The notes under the pieces: model-generated
What the model was told of the DNA's origin: nothing
What the model saw: the letters and a program-made list of their open reading frames with translations, nothing else
Databases searched by the model: none
Shown: positions 7,746-61,006 of the stretch, in pieces
Numbering within the stretch: position 1 is the first letter of the stretch
How the letters are laid out: each line of letters opens with the position of its first letter
Program-made: the position numbers and the translations under genes
Assembly (NCBI GenBank): GCA_963719465.1
Contig: OY970386.1
Coordinates: 789,789 to 853,788, forward strand
DNA: 64,000 bases
DNA from: an uncultured Chloroflexia bacterium
GTDB taxonomy: Bacteria > Chloroflexota > Dehalococcoidia > DSTF01 > JALHUB01
Reading direction: 5' to 3'

Positions 7746-7823
7746 CAATGCCTCGATGACATCATGACATATATATATGTTGGTGTCAATATCCCAGTGT
7801 TTTTCTTAATCGTCCCACAGCTC

Positions 7824-7847
7824 GTAGGGGAGGTCTTTAGACCTCCC
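7824..7847. repeat. REP element copy (GTAGGGGAGGTCTTTAGACCTCCC, perfect 9-bp inverted repeat)
   Basis: An identical 24-mer recurs at 32361, 32425 and, inverted, at 32938, flanking the RAYT gene. Confidence 0.8.
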
Positions 7848-7926
7848 GTTGGGGACGGGAAGGGCGAAGACCGACGGCGGCCGGAATACGCCCGACCGCC
7901 GTCGTAGGTTCTGCCGTTCGATTCGA

Positions 7927-30237: not shown

Positions 30238-30266
30238 AGGCTGAGGGTTTCAACCCTCAGAACTGT
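30238..30266. repeat. palindromic element CAGTTCTGAGGGTTGAAACCCTCAG (inverted copy), downstream of prmA
   Basis: aaggCTGAGGGTTTCAACCCTCAGaactg is the reverse complement of the element at 59380 and a close relative of those at 59532 and 59682. Confidence 0.75.
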
Positions 30267-30283
30267 CTAATTATCCACATCGA

Positions 30284-31144
30284 TCAACCGGCCGCCTCGA
30301 AAACGACCGTCCGCCAATCTCCCTCAGCCATAACCTCGACGGCGCGGCCTCCGGCCCTTTCCAACGCCTCGCGGCAGTCCTCGACGCGCTCGCAGCCGAT
30401 GCCCGCCGCGATCCCGACGCCGCCGTGCTTCAAGACAGCGACGAGCTCGCCCGCCAGATCGATGACCGTCGTGCTGCTGATGTTGGCGACAACGCAATCG
30501 AAACGGGAACGCGGTACTACCGCCGGCCAGGCCTCACCCAGGCTTCCCTCCGCCACCGTCGCGCCTTCGACACCGTTGGCAACGACGTTCTCCGTCGCGA
30601 CCCCAACTGCCAGCGGGTCGTTGTCCAAAGCGACGACTTCGGCTCCCAAGAGCGCGCCGGCGATGGCGAGGATGCCCGAGCCGGTGCCAACGTCCAGCAA
30701 CCGCTGTCCCCACTTCAGGCGCTCAGCCAGCGCCAGTAGGCACATCCGCGTCGTTGCGTGCTGACCCGTTCCGAACGCCATGCCCGGGTCGAGCGTAATC
30801 ACCAGCTCGCCGGCTTTCCGTCGATGGTGCCGCCAGCGCGGCACGATCACGAACGGCCCGACCCGCTGCGCTCGAAAGTGCTTCTTCCAGGCGTTCGCCC
30901 AGTCCTCTTCGTGAACGGTGCGGCTCCGGACCGATGGCGCTCGCATGAGGGCAAGCCGCGACAGCTCGCGACGCAGGGCGCGGCGACGAGCAGGGAGACG
31001 GGAATCGCGCGGGAGATAAGCCTTGACGGTCGCCACGCCGTCGCTCGCTTCGATTGCGACGCCGCCGGCGCTGGCGCGCATCACGTCGCTTACGGCCTCT
31101 TCATCCTCCGGCGCGACGGCAACGGCGATCTCCAGCCAGTCCAA
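30284..31144 (-). CDS. prmA: ribosomal protein L11 methyltransferase
   Basis: LDVGTGSGILAIAGALLGA...VALDNDPLAV...VVANI are PrmA SAM-MTase motifs. It sits in conserved dnaJ-prmA-rsmE order. Confidence 0.85.
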   Translation of the reverse strand: MDWLEIAVAVAPEDEEAVSDVMRASAGGVAIEASDGVATVKAYLPRDSRLPARRRALRRELSRLALMRAPSVRSRTVHEEDWANAWKKHFRAQRVGPFVIVPRWRHHRRKAGELVITLDPGMAFGTGQHATTRMCLLALAERLKWGQRLLDVGTGSGILAIAGALLGAEVVALDNDPLAVGVATENVVANGVEGATVAEGSLGEAWPAVVPRSRFDCVVANISSTTVIDLAGELVAVLKHGGVGIAAGIGCERVEDCREALERAGGRAVEVMAEGDWRTVVFEAAG

Positions 31145-32275: not shown

Positions 32276-32360
32276 AGATAAGCATCGGTTGAATCGGCTT
32301 TCCCGCCGATCAACCTATGATAGCAGATTCGCGACGGTCTTTGGAGGTGCCACGGGAATG

Positions 32361-32384
32361 TAGGGGAGGTCTTTAGACCTCCCG
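32361..32384. repeat. REP element copy
   Basis: GTAGGGGAGGTCTTTAGACCTCCC, read directly. Confidence 0.8.
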
Positions 32385-32424
32385 CGTCTCTTTAGGCCTC
32401 CCACCCTAGGTGCGCCCCCAAATG

Positions 32425-32448
32425 TAGGGGAGGTCTTTAGACCTCCCG
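32425..32448. repeat. REP element copy overlapping the 3' end of the RAYT gene
   Basis: GTAGGGGAGGTCTTTAGACCTCCC. A degenerate half-site (ctctttaggcctccc) lies between this copy and the 32361 copy. Confidence 0.8.
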
Positions 32449-32988
32449 TGCATCCGCCGCATCCGACGCATCGTCGGCAAACGAACCAGAATATGGATAA
32501 GCGTCCGCCTCGTCCACCAGCCCAGCTCTAACTGGATTCTCTCTCACATACGTCCTCACATCCAGCAGGTCTTCTTCCCGTCGTAGCACGTGATCGTAGT
32601 AGCTCTTCTGCCAGAATGGACCGCTGCTGTCTAGCAACTGATTACAGAGGAATCCCGATCTCAGCTTGAAATGATGCACGAAACTCATCACGTCGACGCC
32701 CTCGGCAGCCATAACCACCAGATGCAGGTGGTCGGGCATGAAGCAATACTCCAGGACTTCAACGCCGGATCTCGTGGCACTGTCTGCCAAACAGCTAAGA
32801 CAGATTTCGACAGTTCCTGGGAATGAGAAGGCCCGTCGCCCGTCTTGCACGCGGGCGGTCAGGAAGAAGGCTCCGCCGCTTCGATATACTTCACGTGGCA
32901 GTCTGTTGGGCTTACGTCGACGGAATCCGCAAGAAGCGGGAGGTCTAAAGACCTCCCCTACATCACTCGGACCACCGCCGTCGCGCAT
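32437..32988 (-). CDS. REP-associated tyrosine transposase (RAYT, IS200/IS605-like TnpA_REP)
   Basis: ...GGAFFLTARV...EYCFMPDHLHLVVM (HuH motif) ...FWQKSYYDHVLRREEDL (catalytic Tyr region). The start codon is uncertain because a REP lies inside the 5' end. Its ORF-track start is 2 nt from the leuB stop. Confidence 0.75.
   Translation of the reverse strand: MRDGGGPSDVGEVFRPPASCGFRRRKPNRLPREVYRSGGAFFLTARVQDGRRAFSFPGTVEICLSCLADSATRSGVEVLEYCFMPDHLHLVVMAAEGVDVMSFVHHFKLRSGFLCNQLLDSSGPFWQKSYYDHVLRREEDLLDVRTYVRENPVRAGLVDEADAYPYSGSFADDASDAADAREV
32938..32961. repeat. REP element copy in inverted orientation inside the 5' end of the RAYT ORF
   Basis: GGGAGGTCTAAAGACCTCCCCTAC. Confidence 0.8.
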
Positions 32989-43636: not shown

Positions 43637-43876
43637 AGAAAAGACCCGTCCCAAAGGGATCCCATGGGACGGGACCGTACCACCCTTCTTGTCGCCTGAG
43701 GCGACCGGTTTCAGCGCGTTAACGGTCGCTTTCCGGCCGGACCTGGCGAAATCGCTCAGTCCGGCGGCTCCGGGGCGAGTTCAGGCTCTTCGTGTCGCCG
43801 GCTCTCACCATTCCGCCGGCTCTCTGAGACAGGAAGCTGGCCTTACTACTCCCCATCACGGCCTTTGTCTTATGTG
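43637..43876 (-). promoter_or_regulatory. T-box riboswitch leader upstream of the ilv-leu operon (candidate Leu specifier CUC)
   Basis: Minus strand: a GA-motif start (GAUGGGGAGUAGUA), a CAGAGAG AG-box, GAACUCG in a specifier-like position, and the T-box sequence AAGGGUGGUACGG. It ends with the terminator CCCGUCCCA-UGGGAUCCCUU-UGGGACGGG plus UCUUUUCUU. About 330 nt remain before ilvB. Confidence 0.55.
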
Positions 43877-47677: not shown

Positions 47678-48026
47678 CCTCCGATCCGACTTCTCGAATC
47701 TGCCGTTGCCGGTTTCACCACTGGCTCGCCGAGGGCCTCGGTGACCATGCGACAGGCTCGAAGCCCATCGCCACGCCCCGCGGGGGGGACACGCCCTCGG
47801 TTCAACGCCTCAACAGACAGTAGCTTCTCTGGGAGACAATCTGCCTCCTCACACAGGAAAACGGCCGCCGCGAGCCGCCGTTACAGCCGCCGCGGCCGCC
47901 CGTCGAATCTACGGCAGCGTTTTTCACGCTTTCTTCACGTTCTTCGACTGCGATTCACGGCGACCGCACTTGGCGAACCTATGCTGAAGGGTCGGCGAGT
48001 CATCAAGAAACGAAGGAGTTAGAGAA

Positions 48027-48371: not shown

Positions 48372-50210
48372 CTACTTCTGCCGGCGCCTCTTCGCGTACC
48401 ACCCGCCGACGGCAACAGTCGCCAGAACCATCGCCACTATGGCCAAGCCGGTAAGCTGGGCGACCAGCCCCGGCACGTTGATTCCTAGGGGACCGATGCC
48501 TGAGGCGGCTGCCCCAAAGCCGGCAACGTCCGGCGCTTCCGCGATACCGCCGACGGCAGCCGGCCCCGGGGTGGGAGTGTCGGTCGGTGTAACCGTCGCA
48601 GTACTCGTACCCGTAGCCGTGGGGGTGGGCGTTGGGTTGGACGGGTCTTCAATCACCGATACGCTGTCATACCCCGAGTTCGTCACGTAGATGCGGTTCG
48701 TGTCGGGGTTGACGGCCACGCCCAAGGGGCCACCCCCGACCGCCACGGTGGCGACGACCGCGTTGCTGTCGCCGCCGATGACGGAGACGTTGTTGCCGTA
48801 GTAATTCGTCACATAGATGCGATTCGTGCTGGGGTTGACGGCCACGCCCCAGGGGTAACTGTAGCTCCCGACCGCCACAGCGGCCACGACCGTGCTACTG
48901 GCGCCGTCGATCACGGAGACGTTGTTGCTGGTGTAGTTCGCAACGTAGATTCGGTTCGTGTTGGGGTCGACGTCAACGCCGTCGGGGTAACTCCCAACCG
49001 CTACGGGGGTGGCGACGACCGTATTGCTGGCGCCGTCGATGACGCAGACGCTGTTCTCGTCATCGTTCGCCACGTAGATGAGGTTCGTGGTGGGGTTGAC
49101 AGCCATGCCCTGAACCGCCCCCCCAACCGCTACGTGGTCGACGACCGTGTTGTTGGTGCCGTCGATGACGGAGACGTTGCCACCGCCCGTCACGTAAATG
49201 CGGTTCGTGCTGGGGTTGACGGCCACGGCGCAGCCCCAGCCCGGTACGGTGGCGACGACGGTGTTCCTTGTGCCGTCGATGACGGAGACGTTGTTGTACG
49301 TCACGTAGATGAGGTTCGTGGTGGGGTTGACAGCCGCGCCGCAGGAGGCAGACCCCGCCTCTACGCTGGCGACGACGGTGTTGCTTGTGCCGTCGATGAC
49401 GGAGACGGTGCCGTCGCCCCAGTTCGTCACGTAGATGAGGTTCGTCTTGGGGTTCACGGCCACGCCCCAGGGCCAATGCCCGACCCCTACGGTGGCGACG
49501 ACCTTGTTGCTGGCGCCGTCGATGACGGAGACGTTGGGGCCGTTGGGGCTGTACCAGCACGGCACGTAGATGAGGTTCGTGTTGGGGTTAACGGTTACGA
49601 CCCCGGGGCCGCTCCCGACCGCTACAGTGGCGACGACCGCGTTGCTGGCGCCGTCGATGACGGAGACGTTGTTGTCGTTGAAGCTAGTGACGTAGATGCG
49701 GTCCGTGTTGGGGTTGACGGCCACGCCGTCGGGGTAACTCCCGACCGGTACGGTGGCAACGACCATGTCGCTGGCGCCGTCGATGACGGAGACGCTGTTG
49801 CCGCCATAGTTCGCCACGTAAATGCGGCCCGTGTCGGGGTTGACGGCTACAGCCCTGGGGCTACTCCCGACCGCCACGATGGCCACCACGGTGTTGCTGC
49901 CGCCGTCGATGACGGAGACGTTTCTGCTGCCCCAGTTCGCCACGTAGATGAGGCCGGTGTTGGGGTTGACGGCCACGCCCTCGGGACTGTGTCCGCCCGG
50001 GGCTGTTCCGATGGTGGCGATGACGGTTGGGTCGCCGGCGGCTGCGCGGGCGCCGGGTGCCGGCCCCCGCAGGGCAAGAGCGCCCACCACTATCGCAAGC
50101 GCCACTGCCCCGGCCAGTCCCGCAACCGCCAATCTGGGAACGATTTCAGAGCGCATCATGCACCTCCGGAGGATATGAGTGCCACCACCCTGGCGGGGAT
50201 GGCGCAACAT
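48372..50210 (-). CDS. YVTN-family beta-propeller repeat protein with PT-rich linker and C-terminal TM/GGWYAKRRRQK anchor
   Basis: About 11 tandem copies of the 40-residue unit (YV[AT]N.....VSVIDG.SNTVVATV.VG..P.GVAVNP.TNRIYV) follow a signal peptide. The C-terminus reads ...VGGIAEAPDV...TM helix...GGWYAKRRRQK. Confidence 0.85.
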   Translation of the reverse strand: MLRHPRQGGGTHILRRCMMRSEIVPRLAVAGLAGAVALAIVVGALALRGPAPGARAAAGDPTVIATIGTAPGGHSPEGVAVNPNTGLIYVANWGSRNVSVIDGGSNTVVAIVAVGSSPRAVAVNPDTGRIYVANYGGNSVSVIDGASDMVVATVPVGSYPDGVAVNPNTDRIYVTSFNDNNVSVIDGASNAVVATVAVGSGPGVVTVNPNTNLIYVPCWYSPNGPNVSVIDGASNKVVATVGVGHWPWGVAVNPKTNLIYVTNWGDGTVSVIDGTSNTVVASVEAGSASCGAAVNPTTNLIYVTYNNVSVIDGTRNTVVATVPGWGCAVAVNPSTNRIYVTGGGNVSVIDGTNNTVVDHVAVGGAVQGMAVNPTTNLIYVANDDENSVCVIDGASNTVVATPVAVGSYPDGVDVDPNTNRIYVANYTSNNVSVIDGASSTVVAAVAVGSYSYPWGVAVNPSTNRIYVTNYYGNNVSVIGGDSNAVVATVAVGGGPLGVAVNPDTNRIYVTNSGYDSVSVIEDPSNPTPTPTATGTSTATVTPTDTPTPGPAAVGGIAEAPDVAGFGAAASGIGPLGINVPGLVAQLTGLAIVAMVLATVAVGGWYAKRRRQK

Positions 50211-50675
50211 TACGCCGGCATCGAAGGTTTGTCAAGGGGCCAGCGACCCGCCGTTCGTTACTATCCTAGTTGCTCTGCCGCCTGCGCCGTCTCTCACCGT
50301 TCGGGGTGCCACCAGCCGCTTCCAATTCCCCCACTCCTCTGCTATCCTCACCTCCGCCTGCCCGTTTACCCGTCTGGACGTGCCCGTCTGGGACAGCTCC
50401 CGAAAGACCCCCGATGCCATGCTTTCGCCCATCTTTCGCCGACGCCGCCTGCCCGCCGTCGACCCGGTCTACCGCCCCTCCGAAAATCAATTCACAAAAC
50501 GCGCCCTTAACAGATTCGCCGGATCAATCTTTTTCAAAAACAACTCAATCAAAGCCTCCAGCCCGCACGACGCCCCCCGAATCGGCTCGCCTCGACACCT
50601 TGAAGTGCGTCTGCTATCATCGATGATGCCGCTGGCCTTCCGCCCAAGCGGCAAAGTGACGATGCTTCTCGAGAA

Positions 50676-50753
50676 CGGGGTGTAGCTCAGTTAGGCTAGA
50701 GCGCACGGTTCGGGACCGTGAGGTCGGCAGTTCAAATCTGCCCACCCCGACCA
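50676..50753 (+). tRNA. tRNA-Pro (anticodon CGG), CCA encoded
   Basis: CGGGGTG-TA-GCTC-AGTTAGGCTA-GAGC-G-CACGG-TTCGGGA-CCGTG-AGGTC-GGCAG-TTCAAAT-CTGCC-CACCCCG-A-CCA. The cloverleaf pairs cleanly; anticodon loop UUCGGGA. Confidence 0.85.
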
Positions 50754-56751: not shown

Positions 56752-59352
56752 ATGACGACCGACAGCGGCATTGGCAACGTGCGCCCAATCAAGATTGAAG
56801 ACGAGATGCGCGCGTCTTACCTGGACTACGCGATGAGCGTTATCGTGTCGCGGGCGCTGCCAGACGTACGCGACGGACTGAAGCCCGTTCAGCGCCGCAT
56901 TCTCTACGGGATGTCGGAGCTGAACCTGCGTTCGAACGCAGCCTATCGCAAGTGCGCCACGACCGTCGGCGATGTCATGGGCAAGTATCACCCGCACGGC
57001 GACGCCGCCATCTACGAAACGCTCGTGCGGATGGCGCAGGATTTCTCATTGCGGTACCCGCTTGTCGATGGGCAGGGGAACTTCGGCAGCATGGACGGCG
57101 ACTCAGCGGCGGCGATGCGCTACACGGAGGCGCGACTGGCTGCCGTGGCCGAGGAGATGCTCGCCGACATCGACAAAGACACGGTCGATTTCGTCCCCAA
57201 CTTCGATGACAAGAACAAGGAGCCGGTTGTCCTGCCCTCCCGTCTGCCGAACATTCTCGCCAATGGCGCCTACGGTATCGCCGTCGGCATGGCGACGAAT
57301 ATCCCACCGCACAATCTCGGAGAGGTCTGCGACGCCATCTGCCAGCTGATAGACAAGCCGGATGCGACGACGGATGAGCTGGCCGAGATCATCAAGGGGC
57401 CAGACTTCCCAACCGGCGGCTTCATCTTCCGCTACGAGCAGGTGCGCAGGGACGGCACGGAAGCGCGAGAGGACTCTATTAGAGAGGCGTATCGTGACGG
57501 CCGCGGGCGGGTCATGATGCGGGCCTGCACCCACATCGAAGAATCAACCCGCGGCGGACGGCAGCATATCGTGGTGACGGAGCTGCCTTACATGACGAAC
57601 AAGGCTGCGCTGATCGAGCGGATCGCAGAGCTGGCGCGCACGAAGCGTGTCGAGGGCATAAGCGACCTGCGTGACGAGTCGGACCGGCACGGGATGCGCA
57701 TCGTGGTCGAGCTGAGCCGGGCCGGGCAGGCGCAGGAGGTGCTAAACCAGCTCTACCGCTTCACCAGCATGCAATCGTCATTCCCGATCAACATGCTGGC
57801 CCTTGTCGACGGGCAGCCGCGGACGCTGAGCCTGAAGCGAATACTGGAGCACTACGTCGCCTTCCGGCGAGAGGTCATCCGGCGGCGTTCGCAGTTCGAC
57901 CTGGACCGGGCTCGGGAGCGTGAGCACATCCTGCAGGGGCTGATGAAGGCGCTTCAGAACGTGGACGAGGTGATTCAGACGATCCGCAAGGCGCAGTCGG
58001 CGGAGAACGCCAAGGAACGGCTGATGAAGGCGCCGTTCAAGATGAGCGAGCGGCAGGCGCAGGCGGTGCTGGACATGCAGCTTCGTCGTCTGGCGCGGCT
58101 GGAGCGACAGAAGATCGAAGAGGAGTACAACGGCGTCATCCAGCAGATCGCCTACCTGGAGGACCTGCTGGGCAATCCGCGGAAGATCGACTTCCTCATC
58201 AAGGAGGAGGCGCAGGACATCAAGAAGCGTTTCGGCGACCCGCGCCGGACGCGGATCATCGACCAAGAGCTCGTGGAGCTGACGACGGAAGACCTGGTGC
58301 CACACCAGGAGACCGTCGTCACGCTGAGCAATCGTGGCTACATCAAACGCATCCCGCTGGACACGTACCGACTGCAGCGACGCGGCGGTCGCGGCATCAC
58401 GGGCATGACGACACGCGAGGCGGACGCCGTGCGGCGCCTGCTGGTCGCGGACACGCACGACAGCATGCTTTTCTTCACCGGCCGGGGCTGCGTCTTCCAG
58501 CTGCGGGCGTATGAGCTGCCGGACGCCAAGCGCCAGGCAAAAGGCGACGCGCTGGTGAACCTGATCGACATGCCGCAGGGTGACACGGTGACGGCTCTTG
58601 TCGGCGTGCGGAGTTTCGAGAAGGACTACCTGGTGCAGGCGACCCGGCGGGGCGAGGTGAAGAAGACGGCGCTCTCCGAGTTCGAGTCGGTGCGGCGCGC
58701 CGGGCTGATCTGCATGGACCTGGAGTCGGGCGACGAGCTGGTAACGGCGAAGCAGGTGGCGGAGGACGACGACGTGGTTCTCATCAGCAACCGGGGCAAG
58801 GCGGTGCGATTCTCGGTCAAGGAGCTGCGGGCGGCGTCGCGGGCGAGCGGCGGCGTGCGCGGGATACAGCTCGGGAAGGACGAGAAGGTGGTCGGGATGG
58901 AAGTGGTAACGCACAACACGCAGCTGCTGACGGTGACGGCCAACGGCTTCGGCAAACGGACGCCTTTCGAGGACTACCCGCGGCACCATCGCGGCGGCGG
59001 CGGCGTGGTGACGCATCAGATAACGGACAAGACAGGCCTCGTCGTGGCGGCGCGAACGGTGGACGAGATGCAGGAGCTGATGATCATCTCCTCCTCCGGC
59101 ATCATCCTGCGGACGCGGATCGACTCGATATCGATGGTGGGACGCGGGACGCAGGGCGTGCATCTGATGGGCGTCGGGCCGGGCGATGCGGTGGCGTCGA
59201 TATCGGTGTTCGAGGTCGGGCAGGCGCACAACAAGGCCGGGCCGGCCGAGGCGAAGAAGAAGGCGGCCGAGACGTCGAAGGGCGGCGACGGGAAGAGCCC
59301 AACGGTGGCGAAGGCGTCGAAGAAGCCGTCGTCGAAGGGCAAGAAGAGCTAG
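56752..59352 (+). CDS. gyrA: DNA gyrase subunit A
   Basis: [28 protein letters not shown]...[20 protein letters not shown], the active-site Tyr region, and a C-terminal beta-pinwheel with a KK-rich tail. A TGaTATAAT extended -10 lies about 25 nt upstream. Confidence 0.95.
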
Positions 59353-59379
59353 CTCATCTCACCGCGCGGGCCTGACAAG

Positions 59380-59408
59380 GCAGTTCTGAGGGTTGAAACC
59401 CTCAGCTT
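59380..59408 (+). terminator. intrinsic terminator-like hairpin after gyrA (palindromic element family 2)
   Basis: CAGTTCTGAGGGTTGAAACCCTCAGCTTTA, a 7-bp GC-rich stem followed by a T-tract on the plus strand. Confidence 0.6.
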
Positions 59409-59531
59409 TACGTGAAAGGCGTCAGCGCCAACAGCAACGCCTCGCTCCATCGTCGCAGCCCCGATCCCGCCACTCCTCGCTACTCTCCCAGACTAGGTTT
59501 TCGCGGGCTGCTGGGCGGCCTGCTGAAGGAC

Positions 59532-59560
59532 GGTTCTGAGGGATGAATCCCTCAGCTTTT
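59532..59560 (+). terminator. second copy of the terminator-like hairpin (inside tandem repeat copy 1)
   Basis: GGTTCTGAGGGATGAATCCCTCAGCTTTT. Confidence 0.55.
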
Positions 59561-59681
59561 CGTGAAGGACGCCCCTGCAGTTCTTTAGCATCTCGCCCCA
59601 AGAATCGAGCCGCCCCACGCCTCACCAGCGTTCCGAGACGGCCTACGTCGTCGCGGGCTGCTCAGCGGCCTGCTGAAGGAC

Positions 59682-59710
59682 GGTTCTGAGGGATGAATCC
59701 CTCAGCTTTT
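59682..59710 (+). terminator. third copy of the terminator-like hairpin (inside tandem repeat copy 2)
   Basis: GGTTCTGAGGGATGAATCCCTCAGCTTTT. Confidence 0.55.
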
Positions 59711-59793
59711 CGTGAAGGACGCTGGCGCGGTTGCTCCGGCATTTCGCCGCAAGAATCGAGCCACCCCACCCCTCACCAGCGTTCCGAGCTGGC

Positions 59794-60675
59794 CTACGTC
59801 GTCGCGGGCTGCTCAGCGGCCTGCTGGGCCTCGAGGGTTTTCTGGCGCTGGCGGAAGTCCTTGATGAAGCGGGCGCTATACTCGTCGAGGCCGTGGAGCA
59901 TGTCGGCGGCAAGGACGAGCGGGCGGGCTTTGGCGACGTCGATGATGGGGCAGTTGACGCCGGCGCCGATGAGCAGGGCGAGGAAGGTCGAGTTTATCAG
60001 GTCGCGGTCGGGCAGGCCGAAGGAGACGTTGCTGACGCCGGCGGTGACGTTCTGGCCGATCTCGGCGCGGACGCGGCGGACGGCTTCGAGGGTCTGAGCG
60101 GCGGCAGTGTGGTCGGTGCCGACGGTCATGACGAGGCAGTCGATGATGACGTCTTCCTGGGGGATGCCCATCTGGACGGCGCGGTCGACGATCTTGTGGG
60201 CGATGGCGACGCGCTTGTCGGCGGAGGTCGGGATGCCTTCGTCGTCCATGCAGAGGCCGATGAAGGCGGTGCCGTACTCTTTGACGAGGGGCATGAGGGC
60301 GGCCATGGCCTTCTCTTCGCCGGTGATGGAGTTGATGATGGGCTTGCCCTTGTAGACGGCGAGGGCAGCCCTCAAGGCCTCCGGGATGTTGCTGTCGATG
60401 CTGAGGGGGATGTCGACAGCGTCCATGACGGTCTGGAGGGCGATGGGGAGCGTCTTGACCTGGTCGAGGCCGGCGACGCCGATGTTGACGTCGAGGATGT
60501 CGGCGCCGGCCTGGACCTGGGCGATGGCGGAGGCGCGGACGAGGTCCATGTCGCCTTCGAGGAGGGCAGCGGCGAGCTTCTTCTTACCGGTGGGGTTTAT
60601 GCGCTCGCCGATGAGGACGGTTGCCTGAAGGCCGATGACGACTTCTCTGGTGGCGGATGACAGCCTTGTCAGCAT
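59794..60675 (-). CDS. pterin-binding domain methyltransferase (MtrH/AcsE/MetH-pterin-like; methyl-THF:corrinoid methyltransferase family)
   Basis: GERINPTGKKK, a DHPS-like TIM barrel (DILDVNIGVAG...IDSNIPEAL...VSNVSFGLP), about 293 aa. Confidence 0.75.
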   Translation of the reverse strand: MLTRLSSATREVVIGLQATVLIGERINPTGKKKLAAALLEGDMDLVRASAIAQVQAGADILDVNIGVAGLDQVKTLPIALQTVMDAVDIPLSIDSNIPEALRAALAVYKGKPIINSITGEEKAMAALMPLVKEYGTAFIGLCMDDEGIPTSADKRVAIAHKIVDRAVQMGIPQEDVIIDCLVMTVGTDHTAAAQTLEAVRRVRAEIGQNVTAGVSNVSFGLPDRDLINSTFLALLIGAGVNCPIIDVAKARPLVLAADMLHGLDEYSARFIKDFRQRQKTLEAQQAAEQPATT

Positions 60676-61006
60676 GGGTGCGGCCTCCTGTCGCTGGGGT
60701 GATGCCGCCGGAGCGGATAGGTTCAGTATAGGGCGGCGAGAGGCGGGATGGGAAGGCGGCGTTGATTGAATTGTTTTTAAAAAAGATCGAGCTAATGAAT
60801 CTGTTAAGGGCGCTTTTTGTGGATTGATTTTCGGACGGCCGGGTCGGCGAGTCGCCGGCGCAAGGCGGGTGGTTCGGGGTAAGCGGCGTCGATGGGCGAG
60901 AACACGGTGTCGGGAGCCTTTCGGGGGTTGTTGAACCGAGGATAGCAGAGGGGCGGGGGATTTGGAAGCGGCTGGTGACGCAGACTTGTTCTGCAGGCTT
61001 GAAAGG

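Follow-up and report, generated by a model that had tools for sequence, protein, structure and literature searches.

What is a row of three closely similar hairpins, interspersed with extra copies of the end of a gene, doing between two convergent genes? The question is raised by a 64,000-nt stretch of DNA from an uncultured Chloroflexia bacterium (positions 789,789 to 853,788 of contig OY970386.1, assembly GCA_963719465.1; Dehalococcoidia, Chloroflexota in the GTDB lineage), the whole of which is referred to below as the window. Here gyrA (56752-59352, + strand), the upstream convergent gene, and a gene for a pterin-binding methyltransferase (MT; PF00809; 59794-60675, - strand) are separated by a spacer of 441 nt in which the hairpins lie. 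An initial annotation of this DNA had proposed either a triple terminator or a mobile element resembling repetitive extragenic palindromic (REP) sequences and promoting local duplication. The palindrome is probably a REP-type dispersed extragenic hairpin of a Dehalococcoidia lineage, which in the window has become tandemly triplicated.

A dispersed family of hairpins

The pattern CTGAGGG-N(3-9)-CCCTCAG matches the window at four positions (30241, 59386, 59536 and 59686), always with six nucleotides between the stem halves, and does not match shuffled sequence; a relaxed search of the window for diverged copies of the hairpin returned none beyond those four. Copy A (CTGAGGGTTGAAACCCTCAG; 59386..59405, + strand), located 33 nt past the gyrA stop codon, has a stem of 8 bp and a TGAA loop. 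Copies B1 (also called B; CTGAGGGATGAATCCCTCAG; 59536..59555, + strand) and B2 (also called C; 59686..59705, + strand) are identical to each other, including the 10 nt before and the 17 nt after the palindrome, and have A-T at the eighth stem pair where copy A has T-A. Copy D (30241..30260, - strand), the inverted copy that the initial annotation had noticed after prmA (30284-31144, - strand), is located 23 nt past the stop codon of that gene, and its minus-strand sequence is the same as that of copy A; the sequences quoted in that annotation had all been placed correctly to within 1 nt. On either strand the element is predicted to fold into a stem of 8 bp capped by a TGAA/UUCA tetraloop, with a centroid energy of approximately -12.6 kcal/mol, and it is thus a short stable stem-loop palindrome within the size range of REPs (about 20-40 bp). 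The 448-nt spacer, folded in its entirety, has z = -0.3 and shows no larger structure, and Rfam returned no match at the array, either at gathering level or at E<=1.

When CTGAGGGNTGAANCCCTCAG was scanned against one genome per GTDB species, at least 109 stretches were recovered, most of them in metagenome-assembled genomes (MAGs) of Dehalococcoidia or other Chloroflexota of peat and soil origin, several loci being found in each MAG; the numbers in related MAGs ranged from at least 7 to at least 20 hairpin loci each. Approximately 25 loci outside the Chloroflexota were set aside, and the statistics of stem and flanks refer to the 91 copies in Chloroflexota. The two stem positions left free by the pattern, which form pair 8, are complementary in 87 of the 91 copies (T-A in 63, A-T in 23 and C-G in one), and stem pair 8 therefore covaries. 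The triplet that follows the stem is also conserved (C in 97%, T in 77% and T in 75%), so that on the other strand a tag of the form RAAG abuts the stem, and the approximate consensus of the element with its short flanks is caGTT-CTGAGGG-WTGAAW-CCCTCAG-CTT. The tetranucleotide GTAG or CGTC at the palindrome end was not found as a feature of this family, which has RAAG instead. Among the loci set aside are those of several gut Clostridia MAGs (L020, L035, L061, L069, L079, L082, L087 and L089), which contain the 20-mer CTGAGGGATGAATCCCTCAG in a different conserved context (gcgaagcgaagaagggagt-...-gcggggtttggggcggcagcccc); this looks like an unrelated conserved element.

Many copies of the family in relatives adjoin an inverted, related palindrome of CTGCGGG type, forming doublets that resemble REPINs (REP doublets forming hairpins). 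In MAG PFL44, the hairpin and a partner, CTGCGGGATTTATCCCGCAG, constitute a high-copy unit of approximately 120 nt that resembles a MITE (miniature inverted-repeat transposable element) (L013, L014, L023, L038, L049, L073, L103, L108 and others), and another family of palindromes (CCCCAGCCT..AGGCTGGGG) has the ends of this unit within its loop, so that palindromic repeats are nested within each other. The three copies of the array in the window share one orientation at intervals of 150 nt and do not form the inverted pairs of REPINs or of bacterial interspersed mosaic elements (BIMEs).

Five Y1_Tnp genes (PF01797, E-values from 1e-22 to 1e-27), with products of 128-130 amino acids, were found in four MAGs in a sample consisting of the hairpin-containing 8-kb chunks of related MAGs, at one locus in each of the four. 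Each Y1 gene of L031 (two genes), L063 and L098 is bracketed by a forward and a reverse hairpin no more than 35 nt from the gene ends; the Y1 gene of L091 is cut by the contig end, and a single flanking hairpin is visible. A Y1 gene bracketed by inverted palindromes is the arrangement that defines REP/RAYT systems, named for the REP-associated tyrosine transposase (PMC2817692). A family dispersed through many Dehalococcoidia MAGs, covariation in its stem and inverted copies that bracket Y1 genes together bear out the suggestion of a REP-like palindrome. The two tandem Y1 paralogues of L031 (4201-6003) share 50% amino acid identity and each have their own inverted hairpin pair, which suggests that the transposase was duplicated and diverged together with its flanking repeats.

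The family resembles REP/RAYT systems and REPINs (Nunvar 2010, PMC2817692; Bertels and Rainey 2011, PMC3116915; Ton-Hoang 2012) in the bracketing of a Y1/HUH gene by inverted copies of a dispersed palindrome, in the single bracketed locus per sampled MAG, and in the REPIN-like doublets and the MITE-like doublet of about 120 nt in relatives. It differs from them in that the partner proteins score as IS200/IS605 TnpA (69-86 bits) and fail the RAYT model, and in that the RAYT of the window itself belongs to a GTAG-tagged family rather than to the RAAG hairpins. By analogy with published systems, precedent exists both for untagged motifs and for IS200-like partners: Bertels et al. 2017 described an IS200 group with RAYT-like behaviour (PMC5581495), and Quentin et al. 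2018 reported that some Y1 subclasses have REP-like motifs that lack GT[AG]G (PMC6006769). The RAYT gene of the window (32437-32988, - strand; 98 bits against NF047646) is bona fide and is bracketed by another palindrome, GTAGGGGAGGTCTTTAGACCTCCCG, with forward copies at 32357 and 32421 and an inverted copy at 32931, which makes this a REP/RAYT locus of the classical, GTAG-tagged kind; one further copy of this palindrome stands alone at 7821 (7821-7848).

The family shares with REP clusters (PMC3733652) a short (20-30 nt), G+C-rich, extragenic palindrome that is dispersed, is found at the 3' ends of genes, and is present singly, in inverted doublets and in clusters. The differences are the tag, which is RAAG (C-T-T on the other strand) rather than GTAG/CGTC; the hosts, which are uncultured Dehalococcoidia; and the head-to-tail rather than inverted arrangement of the three copies in the window. 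GTAG repeats have already been reported from the phylum Chloroflexi (PMC3733652), and no mention of REPINs in Dehalococcoidia was found in the literature searched.

The tandem array and its single-unit relatives

The spacer downstream of gyrA contains a direct repeat with a period of 151 nt (59501-59826, 2.2 copies, 90% matches according to Tandem Repeats Finder), in agreement with the tandem repeat of approximately 150 bp carrying the end of the MT gene that had been described initially. The array (59493..59826, - strand, period 150-151 nt) can be divided into blocks, of which T is the final 10 codons and stop codon of the MT gene (33 nt), X is about 88 nt of 3' untranslated region (UTR), and Y is 10 nt; on the MT strand it reads T2 (the true gene tail), X2, REP, Y, T1, X1, REP, Y, T0. 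The spacer as a whole, in the same direction, has the order gene...T2-X2-REP-Y-T1-X1-REP-Y-T0-X0-REP(A)-flank-gyrA stop. All of the blocks are given here on the - strand. T2 (59794..59826) is the genuine end of the gene (QQAAEQPATT and the stop codon), T1 (59643..59675) is a non-coding copy identical to it at 33 of 33 positions, and T0 (59493..59525) is an older non-coding copy, identical at 28 of 33. X2 (59706..59793), the 3' untranslated spacer of the MT gene, is homologous to the single spacer of the relative L122; X1 (59556..59642) is a duplicate of X2 (73/87 identical), and the differences between the two are clustered in one patch of approximately 20 nt.

The initial annotation overlooked a third, diverged unit, U0 (59353..59492), which consists of X0, the hairpin copy A and the ancestral gyrA-side flank. 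X0 is identical to X1 at 54 of 76 aligned positions, a score reached by one of 500 shuffles, and the flank of U0, CTCATCTCACCGCGCGGGCCTGACAAGGCAGTT, is homologous to the gyrA-side flank of L122. The array therefore comprises three units, of which the gyrA-proximal U0 is the oldest. The block composed of Y, the hairpin and 17 nt has no differences between units 1 and 2 (0/47), whereas X differs by 16%; this identity may reflect constraint on the element or its homogenisation. The C-terminus of the MT protein (...LEAQQAAEQPATT) is kept in homologues (...ALEAQQAAQQA), and because of this conservation the gene-tail copies must derive from the MT gene; the reverse possibility, that the gene tail was derived from the repeat, was rejected on the same grounds.

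Two relatives, L122 and L115, keep the folD/gyrA/MT gene order. In L122 (MAG SPRUCE 654), the MT gene is 89% identical and the spacer is only 149 nt long, with one homologous unit in which the MT tail is followed by 97 nt of spacer with clear homology to X (GGCTGCGATTCTTGGGGCGA...TCCTTCACGAGAAG), by one hairpin of B type and by 33 nt homologous to the gyrA-side flank of the window. In L115 (gyrA 88% and MT 89% identical), the spacer is 56 nt long and contains one hairpin, CTGCGGACTGAAGCCCGCAG. Because L122 and L115 hold one unit and one hairpin, respectively, within the same gene order where the window has three, the tandem duplication appears from these comparisons to be specific to the lineage of the window, and the initial statement that the 3' end of the MT gene and the hairpin had been duplicated twice is upheld. 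The B form of the hairpin is present in the outgroup and in units 1 and 2, and therefore the A form of the oldest unit is derived; either both bases of pair 8 changed in a compensatory manner, or the copy was converted by another member of the family.

More distant loci were also considered. MT homologues of 80-83% identity (L111-L114) were unusable as empty sites, gyrA not being downstream of them, and L001 (91% identical) has no hairpin in its 83 nt of downstream sequence. A related hairpin of CTGCGGG type, gaagCTGCGGGATTCATCCCGCAGaac, is located 58 nt past the stop codon of an 83%-identical MT gene in L112 (4932-4951) and L113 (1938-1957), oriented as in the window, though the downstream gene is MTHFR rather than gyrA. 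L121, a more distant relative with a different downstream gene, has a degenerate copy of B type, cATGAGGGATGAATCCCTCAGcc, 15 nt past the gyrA stop codon (approximately 115-140). The hairpin element may have settled at the 3' end of gyrA repeatedly or long ago.

Origin of the duplications and competing explanations

The junctions within the array indicate how it may have grown. The gene-tail copies end in ...GGCCTGCTG and are joined to AAGGACGGTT-REP, the ancestral flank kept in unit 0 reads ...CGCGGGCCTGACAAGGCAGTT-REP, and the hexamer GGCCTG, present in the ancestral flank (59369..59374, + strand), also ends each tail copy at the join (GGCCTGCTG / AAGGACGGTT). The join thus falls on a microhomology of 3-6 nt (GGCCTG/CTG), which is a signature of slipped-strand or template-switch duplication within the replication fork (PMC1428787); the head-to-tail units and the derived state of the array are likewise those of such duplications. 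The ancestor would have had a single hairpin between the convergent gyrA and MT genes, the state still seen in SPRUCE 654. In the lineage of the window, a segment of approximately 150 nt, running from the final 33 nt of the MT gene through the 3' UTR of that gene and the hairpin to 10 nt past the palindrome, would then have been duplicated tandemly on two occasions. The first round would be old, its units being about 70% alike, and the second, with units 90% alike, more recent. Slippage during replication or a switch of template inside a single fork may have been responsible, and the second round could equally have been an unequal exchange between the 150-nt repeats. The hairpin would probably favour duplication by stalling or destabilising the nascent strand.

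Short-range duplications at microhomologies, attributed to slippage or template switching and reviewed by Slack et al. 2006 (PMC1428787), are similar to that of the window in being direct tandem repeats of a few hundred base pairs, joined on a few bases of G-rich homology, with secondary expansion of an existing repeat. The events considered here appear to differ in clustering on one family of hairpins and in a preferred junction 10-18 nt past one side of it. Flanking direct repeats with a score of at least 40 were found at 16 of 116 hairpin sites, compared with 7 of 919 sites chosen at random (Fisher p = 3e-11). When 613 kb of related loci were compared with themselves, 24 local direct-repeat events were identified, 14 of which contain the hairpin, whereas its share of sequence coverage is approximately 6% (p = 9e-12); the remaining events include three coding repeats, one tRNA duplication and three with other palindromes. 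With the events oriented RAAG first, the downstream duplicate starts 10-18 nt past the hairpin, on the non-tag side, in 8 of 13 events, and the other gap ranges from 0 to 189 nt; this junction polarity, which rests on 13 events, may be new. Arrays comparable to that of the window are present in independent MAGs (L106, L037 and L058), and ends of genes have been duplicated elsewhere too, both 3' ends (L106, L011 and L045) and a 5' end (L078).

Di Nocera, De Gregorio and Rocco 2013 reported that REPs are tandemly reiterated together with flanking DNA (PMC3733652), and therefore the phenomenon is known: tandem duplication with flanking DNA is ordinary behaviour for REP-like repeats. That the element promotes local duplication, as the initial annotation supposed, is in keeping with these statistics and with the precedent of REP clusters, which do not extend to the mechanism. 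The idea that a defined mobile unit leaves the flanking repeats as long target-site duplications does not hold as a general rule, because most of the 21 aligned copies of MITE type lack them.

Several observations weigh against the interpretation of the array as a REP-type hairpin that favours its own duplication. The window contains four copies at only two extragenic loci in 64 kb, and no Y1 gene of the RAAG hairpin family was found within it. The Y1 proteins associated with the family in related MAGs fail the NCBIfam RAYT model NF047646 (36.0 and 39.9 bits, cut-off 80), and the same proteins pass NF033573 for IS200/IS605 TnpA (69.3 and 85.8 bits, cut-off 55). The join observed in the array is 2-3 nt away from the simplest prediction from the microhomology. 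The junctions of eight duplication events were inspected for a conserved motif that could mark cleavage or a target, and none was found, which argues against site-specific cleavage by a Y1 enzyme as the direct cause. Under an intergenic null model with an assumed coverage of 30-40%, the enrichment of duplications is only about twofold (p = 0.0006-0.012), and the hairpin could in part be carried along as a passenger by non-coding DNA that is prone to duplication.

In its strongest form, the last of these points would make the array a microhomology-mediated tandem duplication of non-coding DNA in which the palindrome has no causal role at all. The microhomology at the join, the modest enrichment under the conservative null model and the element-free local duplications in the same genomes (L052, L092, L096 and L107) are all consistent with this explanation; in the L107 event (77-270, MAG SPRUCE 654), part of a tRNA gene has been duplicated in tandem. 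It is nevertheless unlikely, as 14 of 21 non-coding local duplications hold this one element and three of the other events involve other palindromic repeats (L054 261-537, L086, and 32357-32448 of the window). A preference for junctions 10-18 nt past the same, non-tag side of the hairpin (8/13 events) is not expected of a passenger, and the same association with duplication has been reported for REPs in other phyla (PMC3733652).

A more ambitious alternative assigns the hairpin an active part, the flanking duplications being the footprint of how this class of hairpins multiplies. The element, perhaps together with a Y1 enzyme of the IS200 clade, would trigger a copy event coupled to replication; synthesis would restart upstream, the new copy would be joined 10-18 nt away from the hairpin, on the non-tag side, and the element would spread locally, dragging host DNA with it, so that the ends of genes would be copied as a by-product. 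The scheme is speculative and on balance quite unlikely to be correct. We know of no established mechanism for the dissemination of REPs and REPINs.

Selection for transcription termination offers a different reason for three hairpins to persist: as a triple intrinsic terminator, or a stabiliser of 3' ends, they would insulate the convergent gyrA and MT transcripts and would have been fixed for better termination. The location of the array between convergent genes accords with this proposal, as do the stability of the hairpins (about -12.6 kcal/mol) and the absence of differences in the block of Y, hairpin and 17 nt between units 1 and 2, the rest of which differ by 16%. On the gyrA strand, copies B and C fit a simple terminator pattern (8-bp stem, CTTTTCGTGA). 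Like Rho-independent terminators, the hairpins have a G+C-rich stem of 8 bp with a tetraloop and follow stop codons, but the T-tracts that had been claimed downstream of all three are weaker than claimed, being only CTTTT in B and C, which the terminator scan flagged, and CTTT in copy A, which was not flagged and is the first hairpin to be met by transcription from gyrA. The family as a whole is without a U-tract: at least five T in the eight positions after the stem occur in only 3 of 91 copies, two of them being B and C of the window. Nor is there a U-tract on the MT strand, where AACCGUCC comes after the stem. The sequence of the stem is conserved across unrelated loci and genomes, unlike that of ordinary terminators; Rfam has no match; the relatives manage with a single hairpin; and each unit holds a functionless copy of the gene tail that looks like a mechanical by-product. 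A triple terminator is accordingly improbable as the primary explanation; because a T-tract is so rare in the family, any role of this kind would be at most incidental. In Escherichia coli, REPs can stabilise upstream mRNA. By analogy, 3'-end stabilisation is a possible function of the hairpins here.

That the units were stacked by mis-assembly is scarcely credible: the source is evidently a metagenome-assembled genome and the exact MT protein is recorded on one contig only, but the units differ by 10% (U1/U2) and by approximately 30% (U0) with the differences clustered, short-read assemblers collapse repeats and do not invent diverged copies, and comparable arrays exist in the independent MAGs named above.

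Neighbouring features and implications

Other repeats and regulatory RNA elements are present in the window. A non-coding sequence of approximately 260 nt occurs twice in inverted orientation (50290-50600, + strand, and 60715-61000, - strand), with 79% identity overall and 93% in a core of 40 nt; one copy lies upstream of the gene for a tRNA (50676-50750) and the other upstream of the start of the MT gene (60675). Within this sequence is a conserved block rich in A+T (...CCGAAAATCAAT.CACAAAA.GCGCCCTTAACAGATTC...ATCTTTTT.AAAAACAA.TCAATCAA); the sequence has no match in Rfam and could represent a promoter or leader that was duplicated. Repeats with a period of 126 nt form a long array (48554-50055) of eight or nine copies, 60-83% identical, which is probably the gene of a repeat-domain protein. 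Matches to Rfam at gathering level are a T-box leader (43662-43868, - strand, 98 bits) and a c-di-GMP-II-GAG riboswitch aptamer (47698-47821, - strand, 48 bits).

For annotation of this genome, 59493-59525 and 59643-59675 hold relics of the MT tail that do not code for protein, and the hairpins downstream of gyrA are better labelled as members of a repeat family than as three terminators. The family probably adds a REP-type element to the genomes of an uncultured clade of Dehalococcoidia, where such elements are undescribed in the literature searched, and its departures from the canonical systems are worth recording: the RAAG tag, and a partner from the IS200 clade rather than a canonical RAYT. 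It provides many independent, partly diverged duplications of a hairpin with its flanks, together with single-unit states that preceded them, and is thus material for studying the growth of REP clusters. If the flanking duplications were indeed a footprint of the multiplication of the element, they would supply a concrete, testable model of how REPs and REPINs are disseminated.

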